A stretch of 56,543 bases of DNA, filler included, from Fonticula-like sp. SCN 57-25 (taxonomy: Eukaryota), in the NCBI GenBank assembly GCA_001724245.1. It is 4 parts of 4 records of this genome, joined end to end, with 100 filler letters (N's around TTAATTAATTAA, not from the genome) between each part and the next. Parts side by side here need not be neighbours in the genome. Positions count along the whole stretch, not along the records: positions 42,608 to 56,543 come from MEDX01000166.1; 3 more parts are not named here. One strand, written 5' to 3'. Below, in pieces: positions 2,299 through 56,543 of the stretch. Within the stretch, counting starts at the first letter, position 1; every line of letters begins with the position of its first letter. Both the position numbers and the translations under genes were made by a program. The notes under the pieces were generated by a model that did no database searches, was not told where the DNA came from, and was given only the letters and a program-made list of their open reading frames with translations.

Positions 2299-5200
2299 CT
2301 AGCCAAGCTTAAATCTACCGCTGGTGAGTTTCATCTGACCAGACTGGAACCACGCGAACGGGTCCCGGATGGGAATCACTTGGCCTGCTTTAGGGACGAT
2401 AATGAGAAGCAGATACTTTTCCCCTTGAGTGCGAGCAATTTCAATCTGCGCGCCCGACCACGCAAATGAATTTCCCGATGTCGTCACCTTGACTTCCACA
2501 ATGCACTCCAGTTTGTCGTCTTGCGAGTATACGAGGATATCATGAGAGTGATTGTTGCCGCCTGTTCCTAAAATTCTCGATTGCGGAAACATTTCGGGAA
2601 GAATTGTCTCGAGTGCATACTCTTCTCCCCACGCGCCAACAATTTGCGCCAGACTACTACTGCTCTGGTGCACACTACCTGCGGTATACCTGACATTTGC
2701 TGGCTGGCCCTCTGGCTTTCGCAAGGTAGGGGGACGACCGCCGACATATTTGGAAGAGAAAGCAAACGGCCTCGGTGTCGGGTTTGACGTTGCGCCGAAT
2801 TGAAACGTCGCCGACGTCGATGGAGCAAGGCTCGGTGGAGCCACAATCGCAAATGAACGTTGAAACATGCTCACATCAACGTTATCGAAAGTATACTCTT
2901 CCCACTCGTCGCTCTGCCTAGGCGCGACATCCGGTTGCTGCGCAGAAAGTGCTCGTGGCGACGCCCCCAAAGACAACGCTCCTACAGCAGCGCTCAACGA
3001 CGACACGCTAACGCCGCTGTGGGTCGATCGAGAGGCTTGCTGGGAGCCGCCGCCGCCACCGTTCCTGCTGACGCCACTCCAACCGTTTCCACCGCGTCCC
3101 CGTGCCTTTTTACTATTACTAGACCGCTGCCCACCCAGCGGATGATATGGGCTAGGTGTCGGCCAAGAGACTTCCTCAAACATCTGCCTCTGGGGTTGAT
3201 GCTCCTGCTGGGACCAAGGCTGATGCTGCTGGGGCTGAGGGCGTTGTTGGGGCTGCTGGTGTTGTGGCCGATGCTGGGGCCGGGGCCGATGCCGGTGACC
3301 CTGAGGAGCACGCTCTTGATACATATCTTGAACCCACTGGGGCTTGGGCGCAGTTGCCGGGCTTTCAGTGTGCTGCGGCGCCATCACGGCTGGTGAGGGC
3401 CATGTAATGGCGTCGGGTTCAGGGATCAGTTGGCGCGCGTCCGGGTTCGTATATATCGCTTCTTCGGTCGGCCTCGTCTCGATTCCCTCGGCAGCCCCTA
3501 CGGGCTGACCTTTGCGGACCGCTGGTGAGCTCTCTGCCATTGACTGCGGCTGCTTCAAAGACTCGGGCTCTGGCGGCGAGGTTTCAGTCGTTGGTGGCGG
3601 CGCATCACTCATTGGTGGCGACGCAGTTGTGCCATCTTGCGTTTCGGGCAATCCTTCTAAAGCTGCTGCTGACAGCGCGTTCTTCGCGTTCTTCTTGGAC
3701 CTTGATCCACGCGCAGCCGACCTTAATAATATCTTAACAACCCTCTCCACTTGTTCCTGAATCAAATTCAAAGGAGAATCTTTCAAGTCTATCGCCTGAT
3801 TAAACCACCTAACTACCTCTCTCCTAAAAGACGCTCTCACTTCTTCTGTCACCGGCATATCTGGTGTCTCCGACATGTCCGACGGCAATGACGGCGCCTT
3901 CAATGCAAGAATTCGCTCCGCTAATTCAAATGCCGCAGCATCCTCATCGTCGCGCGCAACAACTAGACGATTGTGGGGCGAGTTCGACGGCATGGATAGA
4001 GCATCGCCGGGCTCCGTGCCGCGACACTCAACCGAAAGAGGTTTGAAATCCATTGGCAATGACCGCCCCAATTGTTCATACTCTGAGATGAAAGACTCTG
4101 ATGGCAGCAGTCGACTCGATTCGACAAACGTCAATGACCCGATGCCGTCGTACGTCACAACACGGCTCAGCTCGTCGCACTCGACAAGCTCGGTAGACTT
4201 GAACAAGCTCACAACGCGCGCGACATCGGGGAACCAAGTGGATGCCAAAGCCTCCAGGATCCTCGCAAGGTGATCACTGATAAATAGCGAGGGCCAGCTG
4301 GGATCGTCGAATGGAACAATGCTAAGAGAACCGTCAAGAATGAGCCGCTCCTTTGCAGGAACCTTGTCCAAAGCGATAGCACCGAGGAAGGAAGAGAGCA
4401 AATCCGGCAAATGACCAATAGTGATTCCCAAAATGAACCGCTTCGCATCGGAAGCCTCCTTAAAAGACTTGGCATTATGGTCCGCTTCAGAGCCAATAAC
4501 AAGGCGATCGACCGACACGAAACGGCGACAGCCAAGCGTAGGGAAACAAAGCGGAGAAGTCTGCATACGCGAAGACGCCTTTTTCACTTCCTCATCGCCC
4601 GCCTTTGCAGCAAGCCACGTAAAAAAATTATAGATAAAGTCAACGAGGACGGAATATAGCACCTTTGGGTGGTCCGCTCTCATCTTTGCAACCCAAACGT
4701 TTGCCTCTTGCGCCAAGAGCCGCAGCGCTTTAATAAAGCACGACGAAGGAAGAGGTTTCCTTTCGGCAATATTTAAGTAACTCGCCACCATGGATGCACT
4801 CTTGAGGGAAAGACCCGCGCTCGATGCCGACGCGCCCCAATTGATATCACTCGAGGCGCGCCAAAGAAGACTCCTCGCAAATTCCTTCCTCCTCGACTGT
4901 GCGACATCCGCCAATCCATCCGATGTCGATGAAGAGGAAGAAGGCTCATAGACGTCGGGGAGGCTATACGGGCTCAACATCCACATAACCGAGTGCGGCG
5001 CCGGCAAACCAACCCAAGCATCGTTGTGCACAATACACACTTGGTTTAACGGCCGCTTCTCATCCACAAGGGCCGCGACAATCCCCCACACCACCGAGGC
5101 AACAGGCCCTGACGGGTTGGGGTACCGCGACCGCAGTTTACTCAATATGGCCAAAAATGTCTCGGTGGAGGGCTTGGCCTTGAGCGGATTTAGCGAGGTC

Positions 5201-8200
5201 AAGGAGACATAGTACTTGTGCGCCGTTCGCCACAGATTGGAAGGGCAGACCTCCTTCATGACCTCCTCCAAAACGCGGCCAATCTTTTTTCTTTCTTCTG
5301 TAGCCGTTTTCTTCTCCTCGAGAGTATCCTCAGGGTACTCGAGATTGCGCGTAATCTCGTCCTTGAGCCCGTCCTCGTTAATCCAAACGGCCGTTGCTGG
5401 TTTGATCCATTCCTGTCGATGATAGACAAACGGCCACGAAGAGGCATACGTGTCGGAGACTTTGATGAGCTTCCACGACACCTCTTCAATATCCTCGGGA
5501 GTAAACATATCTTGGGCATTCGTCGTCCGCAGGCGCTCCACCAGCAATTGGTACATCTTAATGATGGGCCCCGGCCTGGCAGGAGCGTGAAAAAAGAACG
5601 ACTCAACTCTTTTAGCCCCACTATCATCGTTCTTGTAGCGATCCTTAATTATGGTGGGCATATTGCGCCGGCAAAGCCACTGAAACACCTTGCGGCTCGA
5701 GTTGGATTTCAAATCATCCTCGATTTTTTGAACTTGATCCGCGGCGATGTTCGTCGTTTCGCCCCACGAAATGGCGGTGTTGGAAAGGATGAGCAACTTG
5801 TTATCAACGAACTTGGAGCAAAGAAGCTGACATATTTCTCCATTAAAGTTGTTACCGATATGCGCATAAAGTTGCCACGCGATGGCCGATATGGCGGGCA
5901 GGTCGGCGCCATCCTCCTGTGTCTTGTTATAGAGGGACGTGAGCAACTCTTCAAGGACGATAGTCTCGCTCGTGGGTATCACATGCTTGCCACTCTTGAC
6001 GAGGATCTCAATACCTTCGCGGCAGCGCTCCACAGACTCGCGGCTCATCATAAAGATATTTTTCTTCGCGTATAGCTCGTGATAGATATTCAGCAAATCA
6101 ACCTGGGTATCACCGAATTTCAACTGGGCCGAATCAAACGCACACAGCTTGCCGAGTGCCAGCCACTGTCCATCAAACGGCACACACATGTCCTTCAGCG
6201 ACTCTTTGTAGTCTTCAGACAAGACTTCATGGATTAGACTCCAAATGAACGTCTCAACGCTGCTAATTTCCGTTGTGGCATCGCTTGACACTGAAATGTT
6301 CTCAGCAACGAAGCCCCACAAAGTGAGCAGTTGCGATTGTGAAATGTCACTCATGCTGGCACACACACGGCGTAGCAGATCGTCCTTATCAGGGCCAAGC
6401 ATGCCGCGCGTCCACAGAACGATGGGGCAGGACTCAGTGGTTAACATATGGTCCCACAAGGCATGCTGATAAAATACCCTGTCTGGCGGGAGAAGAATAC
6501 TATCATCAAACCGCAATAACGTCCGGTCGCTGCCGACGGGCACGAGTGCGTTTTCGGAAAGACAGTCGAGCACTGCTTGACAGGCGTCCGAATACGTTTC
6601 ATCCGACGTGAACGACTTTAGCCTGTTGTGCAGCACCTTGACAAGCCTGTCAACCACGTCGAAGTTGGTCGCGTTCTCCTGCCAGCATTTCAACAGAACT
6701 GAAACGCAGTCCATCAGAGAGAGTTTCGACCATGCAGGTACCCCAACAACCGTGGGCGAGACTGAACCGAAATACTCGTAATACGGTAGGGGAAGCATTT
6801 GGGAAGCGGCAGACGAATCAGAAAACACAGCGTTGGGGCCGTAGATCGGCGCAAACGCTGCAGCAAGGTCGCTGTTTGCGTCCAGATGCAAAAGCGAACG
6901 AGGTGAGTGAAGCGTCGCGTTGTCGCCCTGGCGCAAAATCCAAGGCAATTCCGCCCACGCGGCGATAATTTGTTTGTCTGACGTCGCTGACTTCTCCGCT
7001 ACCCACGACACGAGTTTTCCAAAGGTACCGCGGTCGACCGACTTCTCAGAGAGAAAGGGAAAGAGCTCCGTTGGTTGGTTATTCGCAAACACGCCCGGCT
7101 TACCGTCATACGGGAGAATCGTCCCAAAGAGATAATTTGCCAATGCAAGCATGTCGGTCTGACGGTGCTTCCGCCAACCATTCTCACTCACATCAAGATA
7201 GTCCGAGTGCAGAACAAACTTTTTAAAGTGAGCAGAGGCAGCGCTCGCCTTGCCGTACTTTGGGGCGGGCCAGTCAAACAAATCCTGGTAGGTGGAACAC
7301 ACATTGACCGGGCGCATCACAGCATACGTGCCAGACACCACAACGGGTTCGCAGCCACGATTCAGGTACAGCTTGCGCTCAACTCCTTTGTTCAAAATCG
7401 GCTTCAAGTCGACGCCACCGCTCTCGTCGCAGCACACAGTGTGGAGCGCGTCGTTCACGAGCTTGATCAAGACGGTGCCGGAGCACGGGAGAGGGTTTCG
7501 CTGCAGGACGTCCTTGAGGTACGAAACGCGGTCAAAGCGCTTTGCAAATCCAGCGCGCTGCAGCCAGGCAGCAACAGACCCCGCGTTGATGCCCTCAGCA
7601 GCCTCAAGAAGTTTCCAAAACTTGGCGTCCACGACGTGACGAACGGGTGCCAAAATGAGACCCTCCTTATCAAACGCCCTGTCCTGGTCGTTGCAAAGAA
7701 GATGAACGACCGCCGCGTATGAGCGGACGCCGCCACACGTCGTGGGCAGCCACCGACAATCCTTGGCAAGCACCTGACGCCCCACTTCAACGTTTAGCAA
7801 CGCTGCATCGCGCACAGCTTGGATCAAGCGGACACGCCATTCATCAGTGTGCCTTGGCAAGGCAATCCACTCGCTCTTGCTCAGCACAGAAACCCAATCG
7901 CTCACTCCCCATTCTCTCAGTTGCTTCAAAACCAACTGCGGGAGGATCTGTCGCTTTGCTTGATGGGCGCTGAGCATGTCCGAGTGCGCAAATGACTTGG
8001 CCACAACTTCATTCTCGCCGCGAAACAGGTCGCAGACTTTCTTCGGAGCAATCATCACGTCTGACAGCAAACGCAGATTAGACGAAGCATCGCACGGCAC
8101 CCACGCAAGCTTCACCAGCATTTCGGCCAGGGCGTCCAGCCTCGAATTCAGAAAGGCATGCGAGCCCGCCATCGGAAATGCTCCCAGCACGAGCTCGAGG

Positions 8201-9620
8201 CGCGTCTCCATCGCGATGTCAGCAAGGTCCTCGTGTGGCGACGCAATCAGGGCGTCGGCAAGCGCACGAAAAGCGATCGAGTAGGCGTGAATAAGCGCTG
8301 TCTGAAGAAGGAAAGCGTTCCGCGGCTTGTTCGGGTCGAGCGACTCGCGAGACGTCACCAGGGAAAATCCCGCGTTCACCAGCGCAGGCCAGTTGGTGTT
8401 CCCCATCCCGGTCGGGAGGTAAGTGTAGATGCGCCCCGTCGTCCGCAACGCGCGCTGCGTCGCAGTATTGAGTGGTAGAGCAATGCCAATGGGCGTCCCC
8501 TGCGACGCCGGGACTTCGCGGTCGCTCTGCTGGTCGCGCTCAGCGTCCAGGACGTCCTTGGGGATCCCATAGTGGTACTCGGCGAGCAGCCAGTGTGACG
8601 ATCGCCGCGCCTCTGATTGAGAGTCGCATCCAATGAGCTCGATAAGCTTGGCGCCAAAGTGGTGCAGGAGCGGCGCAGGGGACGGATACGCGAGCGGCAG
8701 CGCGGCGTCCAGCTCGCCCAGCAGCGAAAGAGGCGTCAGATCCTGGATCTCGTAGCTCGCGTGCCACGGATCGCCGTTTGCAACAAGGATGTGCGTGTTG
8801 ATCGAGCGCACTTTGCGGAGAAAGATAATCATTGTGTCCGTTTCAATGCTCTCGCGAAGGGACGCTGAGACGACGTCGTAGACCTGCGCGGTAGCGAGCG
8901 GGAGCACAAGGATGGTGCCGTGCCCGTCGTCGGGCGAGAGGGCGCCGCCGCTGATGGACGAAACCGCATCACGCGCCCAGGCAGCCGCAGTAGGGTCGTC
9001 CACCCAGTACGGCGTCACAACGTGCAGAGGATTCTCGGCAGACTTGGGCTTGAACCGGAAGCGGAAATGACGGGAAAAGATATGCGGCGACGACACATGG
9101 CCAAACATCGATTTGAAGCCAATGCCCTTCTCGCCCGTCGACGAACGCATCGAGTACTGGGCGCGGTCGCCGAGTGTCCCAGTGTGCTCGGTGAACTGGT
9201 TAGTCTTGGACGACACAGCACTTCGGCACAGGCTTTCCACATCTCGAGCCGCAAATCCGGCCTCGTCAGACGCGGCGATCAGCACACCAAATGGGCTCTT
9301 GATCGTCTCTGGCGCATCCGCAAGCATAGGGTGGTCAAAAGGGATCAGCGCGAAAAAGGCATGAACGCTGTCGCTACCTGCTCGCACAGTGTAAGCAGAC
9401 GACAACGGCAAACGCGGGTGGAATGCGCACCGGGGCGACTCAGTGCGTCATCCATGTTTTGAAGAAGCTCGCAGAATATGCGCGACGCTCCAGAGTACTG
9501 GTCAGAAGAAATAAGCTTAAGCATTGGGCCGAGCGTCTCGAACGCGACGCCCTGCCGACTCACGACCTCGAGCCATTGCCTTGTAAGCTCATCTACAGTG
9601 TCCTTCTCAGCCACACTCAT
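2299..9620 (-). CDS. ~2420-aa NO VEIN/sacsin-like GHKL ATPase with C-terminal DUF3883 (PD-(D/E)xK-like) domain
   Basis: Exon 1 (9431-9620) carries IFCELLQNMDDA. A 53-nt GTGCGC...CTTAC...GCAG intron (9378-9430) joins it in frame to a 7-kb exon carrying GFAARDVESLC and TGEKGIGFKS. The C-terminus GAWGEEYA...HDILV...VEVKVT matches the DUF3883/NOV_C pattern. Confidence 0.8.
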
Positions 9621-42607: not shown

Positions 42608-43274
42608 ATTTGATCTTTAGTTTGCAGTTTAGTTTGCAGTTTCTTGCATGAAGCAATGGCGTCATTCTTACGTGTGGCCAGACGGTGGCCTGACGCCTTA
42701 TGACCAAAGGAGATCAAGCCATGCGTCGGAGCCCAGGTCAAACCTGGCTCCTCTCTGTGTTCATTGGTCAGTGTAGAATTGTTATCCATATTTGGGAGGA
42801 GTATATATATTGGCTGCATGCCACAATAAAACTGCTTTTCCCCAGTGTCACAGAAGAAATGATTTGATTCGGACCTGAGTCGCGATTAAGCGATTGAATA
42901 TGCGCCAATTGTCCAAACACAAAACACAGTCGGGAGACCGTTACCTATTAATATTACTGTACGCTGATTCACGAGCAGTGGACTGGTTAGAGGACCTGCG
43001 GAGATCCCTGTGGTGGTCATCACTTTTTGTCGGCTCCTCAATCCTGCAACTCGCCATTACCGCCCGGGTTTTATGTGGATTTACCGAAAACGTGTGTGGA
43101 TTTACCGTCACCCATTACATGGCCTAAACATTCCTAATGGTGAAACACAGTTATAGTTGAACAAGCATTTGTGTAGAAAACGGCGTAGACGAACAAACAT
43201 TTGAGGAGATGATTTAGTCACGAGAACGCAAGAGAAGGAGAATACAGTAGGGGCTATAATTTATTACTAGAATT

Positions 43275-43800
43275 TCAAAACGATAACACACGCCATTTCG
43301 AGCAATGGCAGACGGCGTCGTCGAAGCGCCATTCAAGGTAGCAGACAATCTGCGCGCCGGCCAGAAACATGATCAATCATCATGAACGACTTTTAGGTGA
43401 TAACGTAGAAGAGTACTAAACGAACAGCGTGGGAGCAGCGGTCGGATCCCTCGTTTTCAGGGCGTTCCTCAGGAGAGGCCGGCGAAAAAGCCGCTGTCTC
43501 AGTGGCACCGTCATCCTCGCGCACTACGGTGACGTCAAACTTGTTCAGAGGAACAGCCACGGGCTCCCCGTTTGAATCCCCAATGAAGACGTCAAGCTCG
43601 TTGCCGGCAGCGGCCAGATGCGCCGTCAGCTTGAGCACCAGATCAGAGCCGGTCACCTGGGCACGAAGCAGCTTGCTGTCGTCGAGCGCACTATGGGAGT
43701 GGCCGTGTCCGGCATGGGAGTGGCCGTGCCCGCCATGCAGTGACAACAACAACGTGGGAACAGGTTTGTGAGACTTGCGTGTCCATTTTGATTGGTGCAT
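43275..43800 (-). CDS. Small His-rich putative metal-binding protein (start and 3' exon uncertain, possibly decayed)
   Basis: HGGHGHSHAGHGHSH is followed by a globular beta-rich segment GNELDVF...PVAVP...ERP...CSH. Possible intron 43350-43425. Confidence 0.5.
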
Positions 43801-43812
43801 CCAGTTCACCTT

Positions 43813-43840
43813 ACTGTGGTTGTCGTGCTGTGGTTGTCGT
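43813..43840 (+). promoter_or_regulatory. Tandem GCTGTGGTT-type element pair in the divergent His-protein/ABC promoter
   Basis: CTGTGGTTGTCGT occurs twice, 14 bp apart. Exact GCTGTGGTT at 43827-43835 and a one-mismatch copy at 43813-43821. Confidence 0.65.
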
Positions 43841-43884
43841 ACCATTTTGTTGCAGCATCTCCCAGGGTCCCCACGTCGCACGCC

Positions 43885-45982
43885 ATGGCCCACCGGCGCC
43901 TTCGCGACGAGGATGACGTCCTGCTTGAGAAGGGCTATGGTTCGCCCAACGACGACGACGACGGCGGCAGTCATGGCCAAGGCCACGGGCACAGTCATGG
44001 TGCTACGGCGGCGCTCGCAGTCTTTGGCCGCCTGCGCGACTCGAGTGGGCCGCTGCGGCGCTTGGCGGCGCTCGCGCGCGCTGAGTGGTCGTGGATGCTT
44101 TCGGGTGCCATCGCGCTCGTGCTCGCCACCAGCATCAACGTGTTTATGCCGTACTCACTAGGCTACATCCTCAACGACGCGGCGGCGGAAGGGTCGTTTA
44201 CTGCCGTTACCAAGGTCATCGTCATTTTCCTCGGAGTTTACATACTAGGATCCGCTTTAACAGCTATGCGTGTGTACTGCTTGACGATGGCAGGCGAGCG
44301 CGTCGTGAGGACGTTGCGCTTGCGTCTGTACGCGAAGCTTCTTCAGCAACCGGTGTCCTTCTTTGACGCGGCCCACTCGGGCGAGCTCGTCAGTCGCCTC
44401 GCGACCGATTGCGAGCTGATTCGGTTGGTGCGACACAGTTGGCATTGGTTTGCAACTCTGACTCACTTTCATGCAGACGCTAACAAACACGGTTGCTGTC
44501 ATGGTGCGTTTTGGCATCCAGGTCATCGGCGGCACCATGTTTCTCTTTTGGCTGAGCTGGAGCTTGACACTGGTCATGCTGTCCGTTGTGCCCCTGCTTG
44601 GCATCGCTGGTTTCCTCTACTCGCGGCGTGCCCGCAGCCTTGGCCGCGACCTCCAGGACGACCTCGCCACCAACGCGGCGCTTGCCGGCGAGGTGTTGGG
44701 CAACATGCGGCACGTCCGCGTCTTCGACGCCGAGGCGCGAGAGAGATCGAGGTCCGTGCATATTTTTGCTATTATTCTTTCTTACAAAAAATTTCTCACA
44801 GGTACTTGACACGGCTTGACTGGACTTATGGAGTCGCCCGCAAGCTCGGTATTTTGAACGCCTTCTTCATGGGAGGGACGGAACTTGGTACGTACATTGC
44901 CGTGCTCGGAGTCATTTTGTACGCAACGTACCTACTGACCGTGGGCCGCCTTAACATCGACTTCGTTAGTGCGTACATGTGCGCGTTTTTGCTCCTGTCT
45001 AACCGTGTGTTTTGTTTATCAGCGTCGTTCGTGCTGTATGCCGTTTACGTGTCCCATGCCCTTGGCGCCCTGTCGCATCAAGGCACGGAGCTCGCGCGCG
45101 CGGCCGGCGCCTCCGAGCGCATTTTTGAACTGCTCGACCGCATGTCTGGCACATCTGCGGAGCCGCTCAGCGAGCCGGCAGGCCCTGTGCTTCGTGGCGA
45201 TATCGAATTTCGAAATGTTACCTTTGAGTACCCTGCACGGCCGAACGAAAAGTCGGCCGGTTCTGTGCTGCGTCGGCTCTCATTCAAAGTGCACTCCGGA
45301 CAGACTGTGGGTGTTGTTGGCGCCTCGGGTGCTGGCAAGAGCAGCATTTTGCAGCTTATCCCCCGCCTCTACGACATCAACGATGGCTCTATCTTGATTG
45401 ATGGCAAGTCGCTCCACTCGTACGACCCGCGGTGGCTGCGGCGTCAAATGGGCTTTGTCATGCAAGAACCCATCGTGTTCCACGACACCATCGCTGCTAG
45501 TACGCAAACAACCCCCTTTTTTTCACATGCTCATTCACACGCACCTGCCAGACATTCGCTACGGTCGCCCTGATGCGAGCGACGAGGAGGTGATGGCAGC
45601 CGCCAAGGAGGCACTCATCCACGACACCATCATGGAATTTCCAAACGGCTACAACACCGTGGTCGGTGATCGCGGCGCCGGACTCAGCGGCGGACAGAAA
45701 CAGCGTGTCGCCATTGCTCGCGTTTTCCTCATGGACGCTCGTATCGTTCTCATGGATGAACCCACGTCAGCACTCGACACCGCCAACGAGGCGCTGGTGG
45801 CGCAGGCGGTGCAACGCCTCTACCAAGGCCGCACCTGCCTCGTCGTGACGCACACTAGTGATCTGCTCCGTGCTGCGGACAGCGTTCTAGTGATGGCAGG
45901 TGGCAGCTGCGAAGCACACGGCACAATTCCAGAACTGCGTGCGAGTTCGGTATCCTTCCAGCGTCTTTTCCCATCTGTTTAG
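43885..45982 (+). CDS. ABCB (TAP/MDL-like) half-transporter with His-rich N-terminus, apparently intact
   Basis: SHGQGHGHSHG, TMD with FFDAAHSGELVSRL, Walker A GASGAGKS, LSGGQKQR, Walker B LMDEPTSALD and H-loop. The frame is restored by short GT-AG introns (e.g. 44428-44476, ~45500-45552). Confidence 0.9.
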
Positions 45983-46511
45983 CAATCATTCATTAATATT
46001 TAGTTGCGCAAAGCTATGCTACCATCAATACGAATGCTTGTTGCACTCATAGTCCGTGCAAATTTGCTGAAAAGTCAGTAAAGTATCCACGATTTAGCCG
46101 ATACTTGTTCAAAATAATTGAAAAATCAACATTAACATTGACGTTTCTTTCATGCAAAATAATACATACGTATTTTTCAAAAATTTGAATTCATCTACAA
46201 TTACAGTCACTCTCAAAGTAACGCCCCCCTCCCTCTCATTTCCACGTTGACCGTCCGGCTTAGAGCGTCTGCGGTGGTAACTGCATGCATCATTGTGCCA
46301 AAGCGGCAGCGCGGGTCCGCCGTCTCGCAAGCGTGTGGACGTCCTCAACATCCTTGTAAATGTAGACGATCACGTTTTCAGATTTGCCCCTGCCTGATCC
46401 CGATGTCGATGTGGCCGGTGCGAAGGCGTTTGCGGCTGACTGCAACCAGCTTGAGGCACATCATCCGTGCGGCAAAGTTGCTGTCAAGGGCCGCTGCATC
46501 GCCATCAGAAG

Positions 46512-47528
46512 ATGCGCTTCTCAAAGCGGGCCGAGATCTTGGCACTGAACGCACGGACACTCGACGCGCGACATTGGCCGGCACTCCGACAGGTTGGCAG
46601 GGACCGTCGCAGTGTGCATCGCTTCCTTCAGACGTTTGCAGGAAGAGCTCTGCTACAAGACTGCAGGCGCCGGGGACGTCGCCCCATACTGGCTTGCCGG
46701 AACGAGCCTAGAGTGAGGCGCGCGATCATGAAAGGCGAGTGCGACACGGCCGTGCAAGTCGCGCGGCAGGCTCAACCTCCGGCTGCCGCGCGTGTCTGAC
46801 TCGACCGTGCGACACGCCATAAGGAGGCAAGGATTGCAGGCCCGGGTCAAACGCGCCGTCCTGCTCCTCACGTCCCGTCACAAGGTACTTAGGCTGGTAT
46901 GGGCACGGAGGCAACGGTACTGGTCGCCGAGTGACTGGGTACGGGTCATATTTTCGCACAAGGCCAAGATTATACTAGTGAGTTCCGCTGGGCGTACCTG
47001 GTGCTGGCGAGGCCCCGGCTGCAATCCCTTCGAGCAGGTCAAGCCTAGGCTGAAATTTGGCGGTGGCTCGCTAATGGTCTTGGGGTGCATGTCAGCGCGA
47101 GGGGTGGGCAACCTGTGTCGTATATTCCCTACTGTGACGGCCGACGTGTACATGGAAATCCTGGAACGGCACATGCTTCCCTCACGGGCCTGGTTGCTGC
47201 CCCACGCGAGGGCACCCTTCGTGTTTCAGCAGGACAACGACGCCAAGCACACATGCACTGCGACCGCCGAGTGGCTCGGCGCGAACCACGTGGACGTGCT
47301 GGCTTGGCCGCCGCTAAGTCCCGACCTAAACCCTCTGGAGTTATTTGGGCCGTGTTCAAGAGAACAGTGCGGGAGGGCGCAGCGATCACCGGCATCGAGG
47401 ACCTCCGGGAACGCATGAAGGCCGAGCGGTGGGCGATCGAAGCCGGGCTGTGCGCACGGTTGGTCGCCTCAAGGCCTGACCGCGTGCGCGCCGTCATCGC
47501 GGCAAGGGGCGGCTACACCAAGTACTAT
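46512..47528 (+). mobile_element. Tc1-family (DD34E) transposase relic
   Basis: HTH region GRRP...STVRHAIRRQGL, then KFGGGSLMV.GC, FQQDNDAKH, WPPLSPDLNPLE and VIAARGGYTKY. The first catalytic Asp is replaced (IFSHKAK) and there are at least two frameshifts. No intact TIR pair found. Confidence 0.9.
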
Positions 47529-48067
47529 TGTGCAGACAGTGATATGTTACGCTCACTGAACGCACTCTGTGGTGGCTCCAATGGCAAAAATCGCGTTACT
47601 AGTAAAACGCAACAGAGCGTTTAAGTCGTGACCCAGCCGAGCGATGCAACTCTATGCACGTCCCTTTCATGTGGATTGCAGCAAGGATGTGCCCTTATAG
47701 GAATGCTTAAGGCATGCGCATCATGGGCGAGACATATTTTGATTTTATCGACAATGCGGGGACAATACTTATGTGATGATGAGAGTCCCTCTATGACGGG
47801 ATTTGAGAATCTATCGCAAGGATGTTCAGTAGGGTAGCGGCGCGGTTGCAACAATCCGCGACAGCTCGGCGCACCTACGTATCGGTTAGTATTATTACTG
47901 GATTTAATAATATTGTTTGGCTTTCTTAGTATTGCTATTGGATTTGCTGATTATAAAAGCAGTATCAAGCGCCTACATACAACAAATCAAAAAACAACAA
48001 TAGAAGGTGATGAATATGGAAAGAAAGAAGGAAACACGTACGAGTGCTTCCTCAAGCCACAGAATAA

Positions 48068-48682
48068 TCAGTCGTTGAGTTGGTTAGCCAATTGATCTAG
48101 AACCAAGGACGCAGATGTGAGGAGGCTAAGTTGACAAGGCATGGAACCCAATTTCGAATACTGTTGGCAATCGCATCCGTCGACTGGCGAGTCAAGAGGA
48201 ACTGAAATCACTTGGTGAGGGGACTCGACTGGCGAGTCAAGAGGAACTGGAATCACTTGGTGAGGGGACTCGACCGCTGGGGCTTTATGTTGCTGCTGGA
48301 GAAGCTGTTCAAGGGATGCAATGTAACTTTCCTGTTCCGACACTTTTGAGCGTAATTTGTCGAGTTCAAGTAGAATTGGTGACGAGTGTTCCGGCCGCGT
48401 GCCCATCGAATTGTGCCGCTCATGCGAGCGTTTGTGGCGATGCAGGTCGTAAGACTGCACAAAACGTTTCCCACAGTCAGTGCATGCATGAGTAAAAACT
48501 TGCCGATGAAACCGGTCGTGTCGATCCAGCGCGTCCTTCCGACTGAACACCATCGTGCATTCCAAAAATTCGCAAGCGTACGGTTTTCTGTCAGCGTGGG
48601 TACGACGGTGGCGGGCAAAACCAGCCTTGGAGAATACCAACTTGCATGTGCTGCATTGACGACCCTTCCCTTCAAGGTCCAT
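48068..48682 (-). CDS. Three-finger C2H2 transcription factor with coiled coil and C-terminal Cys motif, intact and intronless
   Basis: Fingers CSTC..HRRTH, CEFLEC..HDRFH and CTDC..HKRSH with a KPYAC linker. Heptad region ELDKLRSKVSEQESYIASLEQLL and tail GCDCQ...PC. Confidence 0.88.
   Translation of the reverse strand: MDLEGKGRQCSTCKLVFSKAGFARHRRTHADRKPYACEFLECTMVFSRKDALDRHDRFHRQVFTHACTDCGKRFVQSYDLHRHKRSHERHNSMGTRPEHSSPILLELDKLRSKVSEQESYIASLEQLLQQQHKAPAVESPHQVIPVPLDSPVESPHQVISVPLDSPVDGCDCQQYSKLGSMPCQLSLLTSASLVLDQLANQLND
48180..48269. repeat. In-frame 45-nt tandem duplication within the ZnF gene (VESPHQVIxVPLDSP x2)
   Basis: Units 48180-48224 and 48225-48269 differ at one base. Confidence 0.95.
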
Positions 48683-48829
48683 GTTGACGACGCGTGCAAA
48701 ATCGTTCAAGGCTAGAATTGGCAATGCTTGGCAGGGCAGTACCGGCAATTAGTAATCAGTGCGTCAAGCACTTTCTCCGATCTGTACGCCACCTTGCGAG
48801 ATTGGAAATATGGATGGTCGTTAAGGCGC

Positions 48830-48962
48830 TCAACCACAGGTCAGCGTGCTGTGGTTGACGCTGAGCGTCCACGTCACTGATGACGTCATTTATGATGACT
48901 TCACCACAGCACAACCACAGCACAACCACAGCACGAACCACAGCACAGCTGACAACTACAGC
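48830..48962. promoter_or_regulatory. AACCACAGC/GCTGTGGTT cluster plus CRE palindrome in the divergent ZnF/P1B-ATPase promoter
   Basis: Exact copies at 48848 (reverse orientation), 48913, 48924 and 48936. One-mismatch copies at 48832, 48902 and 48954. ATGACGTCAT palindrome at 48880-48889. Confidence 0.75.
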
Positions 48963-49006
48963 ACGAAACTATTCCTCCGCATTGTCGCGGTGGTACCACA
49001 AGGCGC

Positions 49007-51500
49007 ATGGAGGGCTCTTAAACTGCAGTGACAGTATCAGAAGGGCCGCCGGAGCCCCTGGTAGCCAGCGGCTCTGTGAAAGTGCGACTAGCTGTTTGAA
49101 GTCAGTGTCGCTAATTTTGCTATCATTAGTGCAACGGAGATGGATGCTGCAAGACAGCTCAGAAGACCAGCATAGCAAGCACTGGGACTGTTAAACCGGT
49201 TACTGAGCCAGACACAGCCTTGGAAGATAGCGCGGCACCAGTGGATCCTGTCCCAACCAAGGTACGGCACTATTTGTATCGGCACCACCCATGCCAACAA
49301 TCTTTGTTATTTTATATCAATTCTCGTTGTGCAGAAGTGCAAAGGGAGTGCATGTTGCTCCAAGACTGTTGCTAAGAGAAGCATGGAGGGTGCACTTGCT
49401 GTTGGATCGGAGATGTTTGACACGAAGGATGCCATCGCGGAGCCAAGGGTGCTGCAAGGCAGCTGAGCGGAGCAGCATGGCTATCGATTTGGATGTTAAA
49501 CCGTTGAGTGAGCCAGAAGCATTTGCCCGACGGAACCAGTGGATCCTATCCCGACCAAGGTGCGGCACCGTTTGCATCGGCGCGACCCTTATTTAACAAT
49601 GATTTATTATATTTGTGTGCAGAAGTGTAAAGGGGGTGCATGCTGCTCCAAGACTCCCGCCAAAAGCAGTGTGGAGGGCGCTCCGGCTGTTGGACCGGAG
49701 ATGACCGACAAGAAGAATGCCATCATGGAGTCAAAGGTATGCGTGCTCGCACACTCCCATTGCATTCTCATGGCAAATAGAGTTGCAGTGACTAGCCATG
49801 CTGTACGAAAAATATTGTCTATCCTGCGGCGAAAACAATACTCCCGGCGAGCAGACAGGAGGACACTCCCTCTACCGACAACGCTACGAAGGCTGTCGCA
49901 GTTGTTGTTAGCCTGCTCTGCAGACGTCCTGGTCGGCTCAAACAACCGCCGTCCAACCTGCGGAGCGCGCCACGACAGAGGCTCGCGTTTCTTTTCATTC
50001 TTTTTTTGTTATAATCAAACAATAAATGACACGGGTTTTGTTTTAGGCGTGTATGAAGCCTTGCTGTGATAGAAATGCGGCTACTCTTCCGAGTCAGGTG
50101 ACCCCATTGAAGCAGCGTATCAAATGCTGCGCACAGTGCTGGTCACGTCAAGTGGCGTGCTGCAAGGTAGCGTGCTGCTCTGCTCTCTGCTGCGTGACTC
50201 AGTTGGCGTTTCCTGAGCCAGCCACATCCAGATCGTTCATCCAGCATGTGCAAGAGTTGTTCACGCGACAGTCCCGCGATGCCTCGTACACAGATGTGGA
50301 GATGAACGATGTGGGGGTGAAGGGCGAGCCTTGTGCAGTCTGGTTTTGTCGCCGAGGGAATTGACTGCGCCGACTGCGCCAACACCGTGCGTGATGCGCT
50401 CTTGCGCGAGCCTGGTGTCCGAGACGCCGTCGTCTCTGCTCTGACCGGCAAGGTGAGCGTGATGTACGATGGTAGTTTGTATTCTGACGACAAGGTGCTC
50501 GAGACTCTGAATCGCATTGGACTCAAAGGGCCAGCTTACGGGCATGGCTGTTATCATGCTCAAGCTCCGCGGGCAGCCAACGCTGGACGTGGTGCCAAGG
50601 CAATAGTGCTTTGCGCGACGCAAATGGCAATCCCGCGGACCAGCGCATCACGGTGGATTCCAAGGTTACCCCGCGCCTGCTTCGCGTCGAGTTTGACGCT
50701 CGCATGTTTGGTCCTCGTATGATCCTGGAGATGCTGCAGCGTGAGGGCATTGACTGCGAATTGAGCGACGACAACGAGGCTGCAGAGCATCCCGCGCAAA
50801 ACGAAGTGCATCGCTGGCAGCGGTCGACACTCCTCTCGCTGTTGTTTGCAATTCCCGTGTTTTTGGTTGCGTTCGTGCTGCCAAGCTGCGGGGAGGCCGT
50901 GAACGAGACGGTCAACAGGGCAGTGGGCCACGGCTTGTCCTTGTCCACACTGCTTATGCGTGTGGGTTTTTGCCACGCCCATCCAGTTTTACTGTGCGCG
51001 ACAACTTCACGGCTCGGCCTATCGTTCGTTGCGCTACTTGAAGCGGCCGAATATGGACGTGCTCGTGGTGCTCAGCTCGCTTGTCGGCTACGTCTACTCT
51101 GTCATTGTTGTGTTTGTGGCACTCGGTGGCGGCTTACAAGAAACTGGCGAGACCTTTTTTACGGCCTCCGCATTGTTGCTTGCATTAAATGCCGTTCTTC
51201 CTGACACACGAACGGGATGCCGCCTTCTCCTGTCGGGCGCGAAGCTTACACAACGAATCAACGTTTAGCGCCTTGAGATCGGACGTTACCATATCGGTGG
51301 AATATGTAGAGAGGGGACACCTCGGTTGTTATGCAGTAGGTGCTGGACGGCGGTCGGGGTTGTCAACGACAACTTGCGCAGTGTGACTATGGCAGACATC
51401 AGAATTCAATTAGATTTTTCTTGTTATCTGTAAACGGGGCGGTTGCGGGTAAAGAGAAAGACAATGTATTGAGAGACAATCAGCGTGGCCAACGGGCCCC
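49007..51500 (+). pseudogene. Heavy-metal P1B-type ATPase with Cys-rich N-terminus, disrupted and truncated in the actuator domain
   Basis: Repeated C-x4-CC exons, a CC-rich block (~50053-50200), HMA GIDCADC (~50357) and TM motifs FATPIQFY, PNMDVLVVL and FFTASALL. Stops at 49019 (TAA) and 49793 (TAG), plus several frameshifts. No CPC or DKTGT downstream. Confidence 0.85.
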
Positions 51501-54500
51501 ACGCACCAATCACAAGAGGGATACAACAATCCGGATCGAACACTATAGTCACCATACAACAACATACAATCAACATCCTTACAGTACACTACTCCTCTCA
51601 ATTAATTTTTCTTTCTCTTGTTGTGTTCACGACGTCTACCAGAATACACCAAAATATACAAACAAACACGATTCACAAATACGAGGTCACTACTCACAAG
51701 AATAACATCACTAATACAATAATAATATCTACTTCACAAATATAAGGTCACAAAATATAATATCACTACCTCTTCCCCCTTCCTTAATCGTGTGTGCTCT
51801 GCTTCCTCATATGCACGGATCAAGTCTGCGCTGACTTCCCCATGTGTCCGAATCATTGATCGTCCGCGACTCCGTATCCTTGCCACCGCACCAGATTCTG
51901 TGGCCACCTTCCAACGTGCCGACAATCGAGAATGCGCTCGACGGTATACTGCTGGTCGTCCGCGTCAATGGGGCCAGGGTCCAACTGATTCGATACGCCG
52001 CGTCGTTCGCGGTCACGCGTGCTTCAGACAGCGGCGCTGCGCGGTCGGTCAGAGAAGGTTCCATTTCAGGGTCGAAATCATCGCCGTCATCCAGTCGGGG
52101 AACATCGCGCGGCCTCACTGTACTTTCGTGAGTGTCGGCTTGCACTACGCGCAGACGCGATGCGTCCTAGATCAAAGTGCAGCGTTGTCGCAACCGACTG
52201 GTTCGACTCCCTGGAATGGTCATAACGCGCGACTAGAGTGTCGGCTTCTCCTGGGACTTTAGAGCATTCAGGCGCCGCGCATGAATGCGACATGGAGGTG
52301 CGCGGCCGACGCCACGCGCGTCGAAAGCACACGTATATAGAAATGCCGATGAGTACGCCGCTTATTCTGGCGCGCGTTCGATTGACTACCGCACCCACCG
52401 TGCTTGATGAGGCGAGGCCAAGCGTGGCAGCGTGTTCGCCGTCGGGTTTCCACACATCACTGAAAGGAGGGCATGAGGATGCTTACGTTTCGAGTCGGAA
52501 TCGAATTTGGAGTCGATATGCTGTAGTCGCGCGAAAGAAGATAGCACATCGTAGGTTCCGCGCGAAGCGTACCACATTCCAATGCAAAGCTGGCCAGGTC
52601 AAGTAAAGCCTACACAGCCACCCTTTATGTCGACACGCATTAGGGTAAGGGGGGATGTTGCAGCCGCAGCAATGTCAGCGGCACGCAGTCAGAGTGACGG
52701 TGACGCAGAGCGCTCGCTAGCATCTCCAGTAACAGGAATAATTGGTCATACGACTCGCACAAGTCGGACCGAGCGGCTTTTCTGGCGTGACAAGCACACT
52801 GGTCTGCTTTGGGAAGAATGAAAGGCACACACCGTACTGAAGCTGGTGGTACATGTAGACGGTCCCAATATGGAGTGAAATGAGCTTCAAGTACAAATTT
52901 TCCACAGGGACGATGAGCAGGGCGCACGTCGAGGGAAAGAAACGCGAACATGGCAGTCTTGCCCCCGCCATTTTCCTCAACTACAACGACGAACAGCGGA
53001 GTGCAAAAAGGGATTCCGCTTGAACACCACGAAACTCAGTTGAAGGCAGCTTGCAGAACAGCGGTGTTGCTCCAGCCGCCGCGACTCTGACGAACATCGA
53101 GCAGTTTGCTCGGGTGGCAACACCACCAATATTTCCCACAGTGTCTGTCAGGTGACAAGAAAAACTCCCAGTGGGAGACAGCGTGAAAAACGAAAATGAA
53201 TTGCCATATATGGTCGTGGTGGCCACGATTAATGAAGCGAAGGATTGGTTAACGTAGTCGGAGGATTGAAAAAATAAATACAAATTGGACGACATTGATC
53301 TAATGAAGAACCAGCAGACGCAGGAGAGAGAGAGAGGGAGGAAAACAGGTACAAAATGAAAGTGAGGAAACATTGAAGGAAGCTGAAGAGAAGTATGAGC
53401 AAAAAAAGAACGATCAAAGCAAAGGAAGGACACATTATAGTAGCACGATCTCTTCATGGCTTAGTTAAGAGCGTCGAGTCTAGATTCTTCGTCCAAAGGA
53501 GCAATGCATTGAGCAATTTCCCACGAAACGCGCGGTTGCCCCAAATGATATATATGAGCCTCAAGGCGGTCTCGTGCCTCAACGAGGTACCCGTGAAGAT
53601 TCGTCGAATGATCGCCAGTTATTTTAATTCCGCAAAGCAGCTCAAAAAGTGAAACTCTGCCTTGAGCATATGCCTCCTCCCAATTTTCACCAGGGCACAA
53701 AAACTGCCCCACGTTTCGCAGCACGTCGATAACAGACGGAATTGGCGGTCGTCGAGGTACGTGTTGCAGAAACCGTCCATTAACCTGGTAGAGGTCGACG
53801 GCGGCGGGAAAAAACTCGTCGTAAGGAAGCTCACTTTTGACAGCTGATAATTGCGAGAGTAGTGCAGCTGCCCTACTTTCATCATTCAGTGGACGACCGT
53901 CGCGGCCCTCATCTATGGAGTTCGCCATGGAGCCTGATTTGCGTCGTTGTAAAAAGTCGAGCGATGCGGCAGAGAGATTACGTCATCAATGGTATAGTTT
54001 TAAACCAGACTCGCGCCAATAAGGTGTGGTGTTTCCCAGCCGTGACCAACTCAACAAAATGGCGCTCGAGCGACGCGGGTTGGAGCGTCAGGAAGCGGCA
54101 GCGCTATTCAATGGCGCCGACCACAGAGAGGTGAATTCCTCGATATGGGATTGCTTTAAAGGACGACTAACATGTCGCTGTCTGTAGGTCTCGAGGCGGC
54201 TGCGCACAGCTCACATTATGCGGTTGTGACCATCCGCCAAGTGGCCTTGCGGGGGAACCGCCGCGCATCTAGCGGCGACAATAGCAGCAGGTCATAGGCT
54301 AGAGCTCAAGGGGCGACTAGTCTAGCCCGAGATGTCTGTCCGCTTTGCCGCCGTGGATGCGGACTGTTGCCCCCCATGTGGTCGCCTCAGTTCTTTTTGC
54401 AAAATTGACTGGGGTGCCGTTCACTGTCAACCACTGAGACGTCAACCATTGTCACAAGCCTGTCACAAGGATTGCTCAGCAAGATCAACGCAAGCTCTAG

Positions 54501-54965
54501 ATCATTCTAGGACCTTTTACCCCTCTACCAATATACGCATTGTCAGCCACGCTGCTTAATAAGCAAACTTCCCCTTAGTATAATTACGTGTAGCTTTTCG
54601 GGTTCTCAGTGTTCTTCTCTCTGCAAAGGTAATAAACCTCTGACACCTTCGATATCTGAACTCCTCCCTCATCACACGGTAAAAATGATTGTACGTCATC
54701 CAAAGATCCAGCCTGCACAGATCACAGATGCGGGATCGTGTGAGCGTAAATGGATTAAAGTGGCGTACCGCTTTATTGGTCGGCTTCAAAGTTCAATCAT
54801 CAAATAGCTAAAATATATAAATATGATTTCGATGCGACCTTTTCCGGAATAATTCGGCCGTTTGAAAGTTACGTGAAAACCAAATATATTGCGGGACCTG
54901 GTTCCAGAATATATTTATGTAAGCTAGTTTTAATTCTATCCTACATGCTTGATAGTCATTGGTAA

Positions 54966-56193
54966 TTAAATCGTCGTGGCCACGATACGACGCCTGGCAC
55001 TCGTGAAAAGTGCCTGCTCCTCAGTGCAGCATTCTGCCTCGATGCACGGGACGTCCTCAACGGTACCACGGCTTCCCTCCTGGTTAGAGCGACAACGCAT
55101 GCTGCATGATACCTCATCAAGCTGATGAAACTGCGCCGCGTCTTCGACAAACTCGTGTTGCAGCGTCGCAGAATGAATACCATGCGAGTGGAACGTGTTG
55201 TGAAGTTCCTGGGAGATGCTGGGGAGACGCTCCTTGACGCATACGATGTGCGAGGACGCCACTAGCTTGTTGTCCGTCAGCTGCCACACATGCAACTCGT
55301 GAACCTGTAGCACTCCGGGCACATCGAGGAGTGCGTTCTTGAGGTCATCCAGGTCAAGGTTACTGGGAAGAGTTCCCAGCAGAATGTTAGCGGTTGCGCG
55401 CACAAGTGGCACTGAGTGGAAGAGTAGAATGCCCACGACAACCAGCGTCAAGATCGGGTCGATGTAAACCGTGCCTGGCGCGTCAACCTTCCAAATAATC
55501 GCTGCACTAACGATCACTACCACGGAGCCCAAGGCGTCACCTGCCACATGTAAAAATGCGCCCCGCATGTTGTGGTCACGTGTGGCTCGTTTTTCAGTGG
55601 CGGATGGTTGCTCGGACTCAAGGTTGGCGTGGCTGTGTCCATGACCGTTCTCGAGCTCGAAGCGGCTATGCCCATGAGAGTCCTCGAGCCCGAGTTCGCC
55701 GTGCCAATGATCATTCTCGTTATGAGTACATGAAGAAGCATCGGCTTTGCGCACAACATGGCTGTGGCCATGCCCTCCACTGTGGCTATGGCCATGACCG
55801 CCCCCGCTGCCACTCAACAGCCCCAAGCCAATGATGTTAAAGCCCAGACCAACGGCACCAACGATAAGCACGAGTTCAGGATCTTCCACTGCCTCCGGCG
55901 TGAAGAGTCGTTCGACGGCGCTCACAAATAGAGAGAAGCACAGAGCTATCAGGAGCACGCCGTTGGCAAGCGCGCCAAGAGTTTCCAAACGACGCCAGCC
56001 GTAGGTATTCCTAGCGGAGCTTTTCTTGGCAACGCGAAGTGCTGTTATGGCTGTGATCAAGGAAATCATGTCCGAAAGCAAAGGCATCCGCGACGAGGGC
56101 GTTTGACTTGCTCATAGTTCCGACAACGATTTCGACGAAGAAAAACGCGGTCGTCAGGGTTAGGGTGACCATCAGGCGCCAAGTCCGGGCCAT
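54966..56193 (-). pseudogene. ZnT1/Zrc1-like CDF zinc transporter, full length but frameshifted in TM2 (pseudogene or assembly error)
   Basis: FFFVEIVVG..SNALVADAF/LSDMISL, NTYGWRRLE.LGAL.NG, His-rich loop, NMRGAFLHVAGDALGS, VHELHVWQL, HGIHSATLQ and a Cys-rich tail. The frame breaks at 56079/56080. Confidence 0.9.
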
Positions 56194-56225
56194 GCTTGCG
56201 AAAACGGCCGTTTGCCTGCCTGTTC

Positions 56226-56403
56226 AACCACAGCCGGAGGAAATATATACAGCATGTAACACCCAACCACAGCAAGGAACCACAGCGCAACCACCGCATC
56301 GTGACAACTGAAGAAATATGACACAACCACAGCACGCCAATCAACCGCAGCACGAACCACAGCGTGACAACCACAGCGTGACAACCATAGCGGCAACCAC
56401 AGC
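56226..56403. promoter_or_regulatory. Dense AACCACAGC/GCTGTGGTT cluster directly upstream of the CDF transporter
   Basis: Exact copies at 56226, 56265, 56278, 56325, 56355, 56369 and 56395. One-mismatch copies at 56289, 56343 and 56383. All have the same orientation and begin 33 bp upstream of the ATG. Confidence 0.8.
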
Positions 56404-56543
56404 GCGAAATTTGTACTGTAGATCAGTTACACCCATTGGGAAACGTTAAGGGTAGAGTCCAGGGGGGTACTCCTCCATAATCAATAAAGTGGCTAATCAC
56501 TGTCACCCCACCGGTTGTTCTGATTCGCTGTCGGCGGTTCGGT

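Follow-up and report, generated by a model that had tools for sequence, protein, structure and literature searches.

Arrays of a 9-mer at the gene starts of a metal-related island

The window analyzed here is a 56.5-kb stretch of DNA from the assembly of Fonticula-like sp. SCN 57-25 (GCA_001724245.1), made up of four contigs joined by N runs. The fourth of these (contig 4, window positions 42608-56543) carries an island of metal-related genes together with three arrays of a 9-mer, GCTGTGGTT, that lie in 5′ intergenic DNA close to the starts of these genes. In the order of the sequence, contig 4 contains a putative His-rich open reading frame (ORF; 43393..43800, minus strand), a gene for an ABCB-type half transporter (ABC; 43885..45982, plus strand), a Tc1/mariner transposase remnant (46732-47415), a gene for a three-finger C2H2 protein of 204 amino acids (ZnF; 48068..48682, minus strand), the N-terminal part of a gene for a P1B-type heavy-metal ATPase (P1B-ATPase; 49129..51265, plus strand) and a gene for a ZnT1/ZRC1-like CDF transporter (CDF or ZnT; 54966..56193, minus strand). 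The recognizable genes beside the arrays are all metal-related (CDF, ABC, HMA/P1B-ATPase and the His-rich ORF), and the peptide GHGHSH is common to ABC, CDF and the His-rich ORF.

The 9-mer occurs 12 times in exact form, each time on contig 4, and is the top enriched 9-mer of the window. Expected counts were taken from 100 dinucleotide shuffles of the whole window, in which the mean was 0.61 and the maximum 4, and none of which (0/100) reached 12 or more copies. When one mismatch is allowed, the window contains 35 copies (13.97 expected), 21 of them on contig 4. Nineteen of these make up the three arrays (2 + 7 + 10 copies), including seven one-mismatch copies at 43813, 48832, 48902, 48954, 56289, 56343 and 56383; the other one-mismatch copies on contig 4 lie at 43934, within the ABC coding sequence, and at 50838. 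A first-pass annotation of this DNA had listed 12 exact and seven one-mismatch copies at three sites and placed the 9-mer far above chance, with about 0.1 exact copies expected. Every copy was recovered, and the excess holds against the expectation obtained by shuffling. The same annotation saw no such cluster in contigs 1-3, in agreement with our finding of no exact copy and 14 scattered one-mismatch copies there. The sole grouping in contigs 1-3 consists of three one-mismatch copies on the minus strand of contig 2 (16971-17356, 386 bp), all of which fall within exons that encode the DKTGT and TGES regions of a P-type cation ATPase, and it is probably due to chance or codon-driven.

Array 1 (43813..43835, plus strand) consists of two copies, ACTGTGGTT and GCTGTGGTT, spaced 14 bp start to start. 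It occupies the 84-bp spacer between the ATG of the His-rich ORF (43800, minus strand) and that of ABC (43885, plus strand), at distances of 13-35 bp and 50-72 bp, respectively. Array 2 (48832..48962, minus strand) has seven copies, four of them exact, arranged as five minus-strand tandem copies (48902-48962) and an inverted pair, 48832(−)/48848(+). The ZnF gene (minus strand) and the P1B-ATPase gene (plus strand) flank it on either side, and its distance from the ZnF ATG (48682, minus strand) is 150-280 bp. A perfect CRE/ATF palindrome (CRE, cAMP response element), TGACGTCA, separates the inverted pair from the tandem run within this array (48881-48888); its 2 matches in the window, versus 1.05 expected, show no enrichment. 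Array 3 (56226..56403, minus strand) has ten minus-strand copies, seven of them exact, at distances of 33-210 bp upstream from the ATG of ZnT (56193, minus strand).

Copies are thus found 13-280 bp upstream of five ATGs, and the other intergenic stretches of contig 4 contain no array. The first-pass annotation had described arrays upstream of start codons in three promoters. The upstream placement stands, but arrays 1 and 2 are each flanked by two divergent genes, which brings the gene starts served to five instead of three. Clusters of at least three copies within ~200 bp, with the core kept and the spacers variable, are present: the copy density is 7 in 131 bp in array 2 and 10 in 178 bp in array 3, array 1 having just two copies. 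The near-uniform orientation and the 11-14 bp spacing noted earlier were also borne out, with 18 of the 19 copies (all but that at 48848) reading GCTGTGGTT in the direction in which ABC, ZnF or ZnT is transcribed and 10 of 16 start-to-start distances falling in that range.

Conserved core, variable spacers and single-copy depth

Alignment of the 19 copies gives an information content of 1.3-2.2 bits at positions 1-9, 0.94 at position 10 and 0.02-0.25 beyond. The copies were chosen to have at most one mismatch and the values of the core are therefore partly set by construction, whereas the edge at position 10 and the variability of the spacers are not. The drop past position 10 fits the earlier description of a conserved core with varying spacers. 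G is present at position 1 in 17/19 copies, C at position 2 in 19/19 and G at position 10 in 15/19, including all five isolated copies. A weak t-c-g-t precedes the core on its 5′ side. Within runs, the spacers measure 2-9 nt, and neither their length nor their sequence is constant from one sub-array or site to the next.

Tandem Repeats Finder (TRF) reports periodic sub-arrays with a period of 14 at 43814-43840, 11 at 48903-48947 and 56264-98, and 14 at 56355-56404. The constant period holds within sub-arrays, but not across or between arrays. The three sites resemble one another over no more than 21-32 nt, within the arrays themselves, and a search for flanking homology between the sites, terminal inverted repeats and contig-end similarity found none. 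Because the core recurs with variable spacers and without flanking homology, the presence of a shared cis-element, in the form of one 9-10 bp core common to three 5′ intergenic regions that are otherwise unrelated, is well supported by the sequence.

A search of sequencing runs found this DNA in three, all of them DNA runs from bioreactor and wastewater metagenomes. One of them is a possible source run, and the contigs were compared with its unitigs for depth and differences. Contig 4 is covered by three segments with unitig depths of 25, 15 and 12, and its joins, at 46905-46934 and 51452-51481, fall at repeats; at the former boundary, the two other runs, whose coverage of the array regions is thin, continue differently. 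The repeats at both ends of contig 4 have a depth of 128-138. Each array lies within one unitig with 0 differences, at a depth (12-25) equal to that of the flanking single-copy DNA, which shows that, in that sample, the arrays do not belong to a high-copy element.

A resident three-finger protein as the candidate reader

The ZnF protein contains exactly three tandem C2H2 fingers, both linkers of which have 5 residues (regular-expression parse and Pfam zf-C2H2). We aligned it to the ZNF568, Aart and Zif268 chains and read the recognition helices (positions −1 to +6) as SKAGFAR in finger 1 (F1), RKDALDR in F2 and QSYDLHR in F3. In F1, 11 residues instead of 12 separate the second Cys from the first His, so that one residue is missing ahead of the helix. 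Arg occupies +6 in each of the three fingers, and under the canonical C2H2 code this residue calls for G as the 5′ base of the triplet. Canonical fingers bind antiparallel to the DNA strand, with F3 on the 5′ triplet. The register GCT-GTG-GTT is the only one, on either strand of the conserved 10-mer, that reads GNN-GNN-GNN.

Residues −1, +2, +3, +4 and +6 of the F2 helix are the same as in RSDALTR, a module given for GTG in a published list (PMC3607563, Table 2). The F3 helix shares −1, +1, +3, +4 and +6 with both QSSDLTR, listed for GCT, and QSGDLTR, listed for GCA (PMC4685226, Table 1; PMC3607563); the related QSSDLSR was used on GCT in a published five-finger zinc-finger nuclease (ZFN; PMC6120587). 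The likeness of F1 to TSGSLVR, listed for GTT (PMC3607563, Table 2), is restricted to Arg +6 and small residues at −1 and +3. Its Arg +6 predicts the 5′ G, the following TT being weakly predicted. By analogy to these modules, the contact residues of ZnF predict GC(T/A)-GTG-Gnn, which agrees with the element at 7/9 positions and neither agrees nor conflicts with it at the remaining two. For a factor and a site paired at random, a match of this quality would be expected about once in several thousand tries per register, a figure that we give as an estimate rather than a computed value. The first-pass annotation did not assign a reader to the 9-mer; based on the recognition-code analogy, the island's own three-finger protein is the likely one.

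The ZnF fingers resemble the engineered Zif268-type ZFN modules of these tables in number, in the 5-residue linkers, in Arg +6 and in the F2 and F3 helix residues. They differ in that ZnF occurs naturally, that the turn of F1 is shortened and its helix, SKAGFAR, atypical, and that F3 has Tyr at +2. A search for ZnF homologs of similar length found none, and in a representative library the finger region matched just generic poly-zinc-finger proteins at 31-44% identity. The C-terminal half of ZnF contains Cys170, Cys172 and Cys183. Its coding sequence includes a 45-bp tandem duplication (48180-48269, 98% identical), which results in the 15-residue peptide VESPHQVI(P/S)VPLDSP being present twice.

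Relation to known elements and factors

Metal-responsive transcription in eukaryotes is understood for a handful of systems, such as MTF-1 with its metal response element (MRE), Zap1 with its zinc-responsive element (ZRE), the copper-fist factors and bZIP19/23. In Saccharomyces cerevisiae, the C2H2 factor Zap1 acts through an element that is repeated in zinc-transporter promoters as well as in that of its own gene. The island is similar in that a repeated element precedes metal transporters and autoregulation is proposed, but Zap1 is a large multi-finger protein, whereas ZnF is a 204-residue three-finger orphan whose putative targets are clustered beside it. In animals, arrays of MREs are present in metallothionein and ZnT1 promoters. 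The island likewise has homotypic arrays of a short element, in both orientations, upstream of detoxification genes that include a member of the ZnT1 family; MTF-1, however, has six fingers and ZnF three. The element is distinct from both, as the first-pass annotation had proposed: the three promoter regions match the MRE core TGCRCNC 0, 1 and 0 times, and the ZRE ACCTTNAAGGT has 0 matches in the whole window.

That annotation had further pointed out that the 9-mer contains RUNX and Met31/32 cores. Both are contained in it, yet neither explains the element. The RUNX consensus is TGTGGTT or, in degenerate form, YGYGGTY; TGTGGTT is present in 14/19 copies and YGYGGTY fits 15/19, but the GC prefix of the element and its G10 are as conserved as the heptamer. 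Similarly, the Met31/32 core CTGTGG is found in 15/19 copies, but the full Met31/32 site AAACTGTGG has 0 matches. The copper-fist (Ace1/Cup2) consensus HTHNNGCTGD has four matches over the three promoter regions, all of which overlap copies of the 9-mer and do not indicate a copper-fist site in its own right. A full-text search of one literature library for the 9-mer and the 8-mer as words returned no published element of this sequence, the matches being unrelated.

Genes of the island

The ABC gene is intact and encodes 630 amino acids in five exons (43885-44427, 44477-44751, 44802-44968, 45023-45499 and 45552-45982, plus strand). A frameshift in this gene was considered and ruled out, because four short introns (GT..CAG, 49-54 nt) restore a single spliced frame that has no internal stop. 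The N-terminus of the protein reads GQGHGHSHG. On the other side of array 1, the His-rich ORF spans 135 residues from the ATG at 43800 and contains HGGHGHSHAGHGHSHS. Its start is uncertain, as an in-frame ATG at 43845 would place array 1 inside the ORF. Family searches with this ORF gave just sub-threshold matches (bacterial hypothetical proteins and CzcB_N, 0.82).

The P1B-ATPase segment contains duplicated Cys-rich modules (KCKGxACCSK, 49.3-49.8 kb) that are separated by GT..AG introns, a single HMA domain (50321-50719 frame) and a membrane portion for which alignments were obtained with residues 696-769 of ATP7B and with rice HMA4. These three features identify it as a P1B-type ATPase; its 5′ exon was left unplaced in the gene model. 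At the DNA level, the module is ~290 bp in size and 80-84% identical between its two copies (49233-49450 and 49531-49738), in which the Cys-rich peptide follows a GT..AG intron, and the copies may represent repeated metal-binding exons at the ATPase N-terminus. No ATPase core domain was found downstream (51265-51900) in the scanned ORFs, so that the gene has been truncated, has decayed or is interrupted by a mis-join near 51.45 kb. Just downstream lies an AT-rich stretch full of repeats (51460-51780), and the early end of the gene could stem from truncation by an insertion or from a mis-join of the assembly. A weak chromodomain match follows at 51856-52023. The Tc1/mariner transposase remnant between ABC and ZnF comprises HTH_Tnp_Tc3_2 and DDE_3 matches that are below the Pfam cut-offs.

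The CDF transporter has a His-rich loop with GHGHSH repeats, and its best named relatives, from Capsaspora, echinoderms, Zygosaccharomyces (ZRC1/COT1) and Fonticula, are just 37-42% identical. Its reading frame shifts (56060-56193) between ...ALVADAF and LLSDMIS..., where the His of the HxxxD metal site in the second transmembrane segment is expected. The frameshift is also present, with 0 differences, in the unitig of the possible source run, and this copy may be a pseudogene allele. A short intron as the cause of the frame change was ruled out, since the protein alignment is continuous across the shift.

Contigs and origin of the sample

All four contigs are eukaryotic. Contigs 1-3 carry REV1, WASH, Mon2, Nup93, P-type ATPase and PanB genes, and the nearest named eukaryotic relatives of PanB are from Glomeromycotina, Mortierellomycota, Allomyces and Blastocladiella (54-64% identity). 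Together with the style of the introns, these relatives point to early-diverging fungi; a look-up with Nup93 was uninformative as to taxonomy. The GC content of third codon positions is 0.45-0.75 on contig 4 and 0.63-0.81 on contigs 1-3, and the tetranucleotide correlation is 0.78-0.81 for contig 4 with the other three versus 0.89 for contigs 1-3. Judging by this composition, contig 4 may be an accessory region or may derive from another organism in a mixed bin. Because its composition is unlike that of contigs 1-3, the latter are a doubtful negative control for the distribution of the 9-mer.

Two side observations concern contigs 1-3 or link them to contig 4. The heptamer AGTTTGC (reverse complement GCAAACT) is tandemly repeated both at the start of contig 4 (42616-42642) and upstream of Mon2 on contig 2 (21496-21517), and it is possible that this repeat is a shared species-specific element. 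Furthermore, 2299-9447 (minus strand) is one open frame of 2382 residues in which the C-terminal NO VEIN is the sole recognized domain. An Rfam search of the window gave no match.

A model for the island and its alternatives

To account for these findings, we propose that the arrays are homotypic site clusters predicted to be read by the island's own three-finger C2H2 factor, a reading to which we assign a probability of about 0.48, a little under even odds. The target of the ZnF fingers would be GCTGTGGTT, read as the triplets GCT, GTG and GTT, with F3 taking GCT, F2 taking GTG and F1 taking GTT. By binding the element, ZnF would control the transcription of its own gene and of four neighbors, namely the His-rich ORF, the ABCB half transporter, the P1B-ATPase and the ZnT1-like CDF. 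The array in its own promoter implies autoregulation. The P1B-ATPase would share the ZnF promoter with its seven sites, the divergent His-rich/ABCB pair would depend on two sites and CDF on ten. Site number would set the gain of each promoter, with two, seven and ten sites giving graded and possibly cooperative occupancy. The targets would serve to export or sequester Zn, Cd or Cu, with the metal as the presumed signal. Either an activator or a repressor role of ZnF would fit, and its atypical F1 and the C-terminal Cys170, Cys172 and Cys183 would be the candidates for a sensor. The first-pass annotation had proposed a new metal-response element. A shared cis-element beside metal genes is what we find, and from the gene content we infer its response to metal.

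Several observations weigh against this model. Two of its putative targets look non-functional, ZnT being frameshifted and the P1B-ATPase truncated. The match between ZnF and the element is an analogy to engineered Zif268-type modules, from which natural fingers often deviate; F1 has a one-residue deletion before its helix and a weakly predicted preference for TT, and three fingers explain neither G10 nor the weak 5′ flank. Some stretches of the arrays are true tandem repeats in which the spacers do not vary (period 11 at 48903-48947, period 14 at 56355-56404), which indicates that slippage or local duplication built part of the arrays. The unitig joins rest on the original assembly, which makes the linkage of array 1 to arrays 2 and 3 less certain. 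Lastly, the model covers 14 kb of this genome: arrays may also precede unrelated genes elsewhere, and contigs 1-3 may belong to another organism and hence provide no clean control.

The weakness of the ZnF-to-motif link, an analogy for a protein that has no ortholog of known site, leaves room for arrays that are regulatory but read by a factor encoded elsewhere (a Runt-domain, another zinc-finger or a Myb-type protein), with ZnF as just one of the regulated genes. The frequent fit of the copies to the RUNX heptamer described above would suit a Runt-domain reader, but conservation extends beyond it to positions 1-2 and 10, no Runt domain is present among the 120 ORFs (36 + 52 + 32, a part of the genome) that were scanned against Pfam, and the introns and PanB relatives indicate early-diverging fungi, in which, to our knowledge, Runt proteins are not expected. 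The three-finger prediction, on the other hand, agrees at 7/9 positions in a unique register, and we regard an external reader as unlikely. Arrays and ZnF could also form a regulon that answers to a non-metal signal, such as general stress, growth phase or the silencing of a transposon-rich accessory region. The two broken targets, the high-copy repeats that flank the island and the transposon fragments inside it would be in keeping with such a signal; each recognizable array-adjoining gene, however, encodes a metal transporter or metal-binding protein, three of which share GHGHSH, and we find a non-metal regulon improbable, the least probable of the alternatives discussed here.

The remaining alternative is that the arrays have no regulatory role and are slippage-grown tandem repeats or minisatellites, or transposon subterminal repeats or remnants, that lie near gene starts by chance. 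The first-pass annotation had named such an origin as one that would undo its proposal, and one part of it is real, namely the periodic sub-arrays with periods of 11 and 14. Furthermore, contig 4 carries transposon debris (the DDE_3 fragment and the weak chromodomain match), short motif arrays in both orientations are typical of the subterminal regions of CACTA and hAT elements, and the 9-mer is common as a simple tandem repeat: a scan of metagenome contigs for three spaced copies found at least 118 loci. Most of these are regular tandem repeats and a few are irregular, and among the matches listed most periods are a multiple of 3. The listed loci, however, are unrelated to the window, as blastn with the whole window and tblastn with the ZnF protein found no relation, and the scan is thus uninformative on this organism. 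In prokaryote genome contigs, the 14-bp unit repeated twice was found in one unrelated Actinomycetota metagenome-assembled genome, with two copies. A minisatellite or transposon origin is further opposed by the presence of the same core with different spacers at three sites, and by the position of all three arrays in the small fraction of contig 4 that is 5′ of metal-related genes. Transposon subterminal repeats would extend beyond the arrays, whereas we see no such homology, a depth as low as that of single-copy DNA, three arrays instead of two, and arrays 2 and 3 in direct orientation. A non-regulatory origin of the arrays as a whole therefore appears quite unlikely to us.

Implications

A broader version of the proposed ZnF model is that the island is a self-contained eukaryotic cassette, in which an orphan three-finger factor, a private 9-10 bp element and metal-detoxification genes are united in ~13 kb of transposon-rich accessory DNA. 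We put this forward tentatively and consider it doubtful. A similar clustering of several eukaryotic metal-resistance genes in a transposon-rich accessory region has been described for Paecilomyces variotii, in which the genes are carried by the giant Starship transposon Hephaestus (bioRxiv 10.1101/2020.03.06.981548; PMC10104507). The 14 kb of the island display neither a tyrosine recombinase 'captain' nor Starship ends. The feature of interest in the island is its shared cis-element together with a resident candidate regulator. If the cassette were real, the regulator and its cis-sites would travel with the effectors, as they do in bacterial metal-resistance operons that have their own regulator, and the three recognition helices of the factor would directly reveal its specificity.

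Almost nothing is known about metal-responsive transcription in eukaryotes other than animals, yeasts and plants. The locus offers a complete sequence-based hypothesis, in which a new element, a candidate reader whose helices predict the triplets of that element and a cluster of targets are found side by side. Its logic would be that of Zap1/ZRE and MTF-1/MRE, with a different element and a different factor. If the hypothesis is true, the island would be a rare natural case in which a factor is matched to its site de novo by the C2H2 recognition code, as well as a eukaryotic gene cluster with its own regulator and cis-sites, and it would supply a compact pair of a metal-inducible promoter and its factor for practical use.

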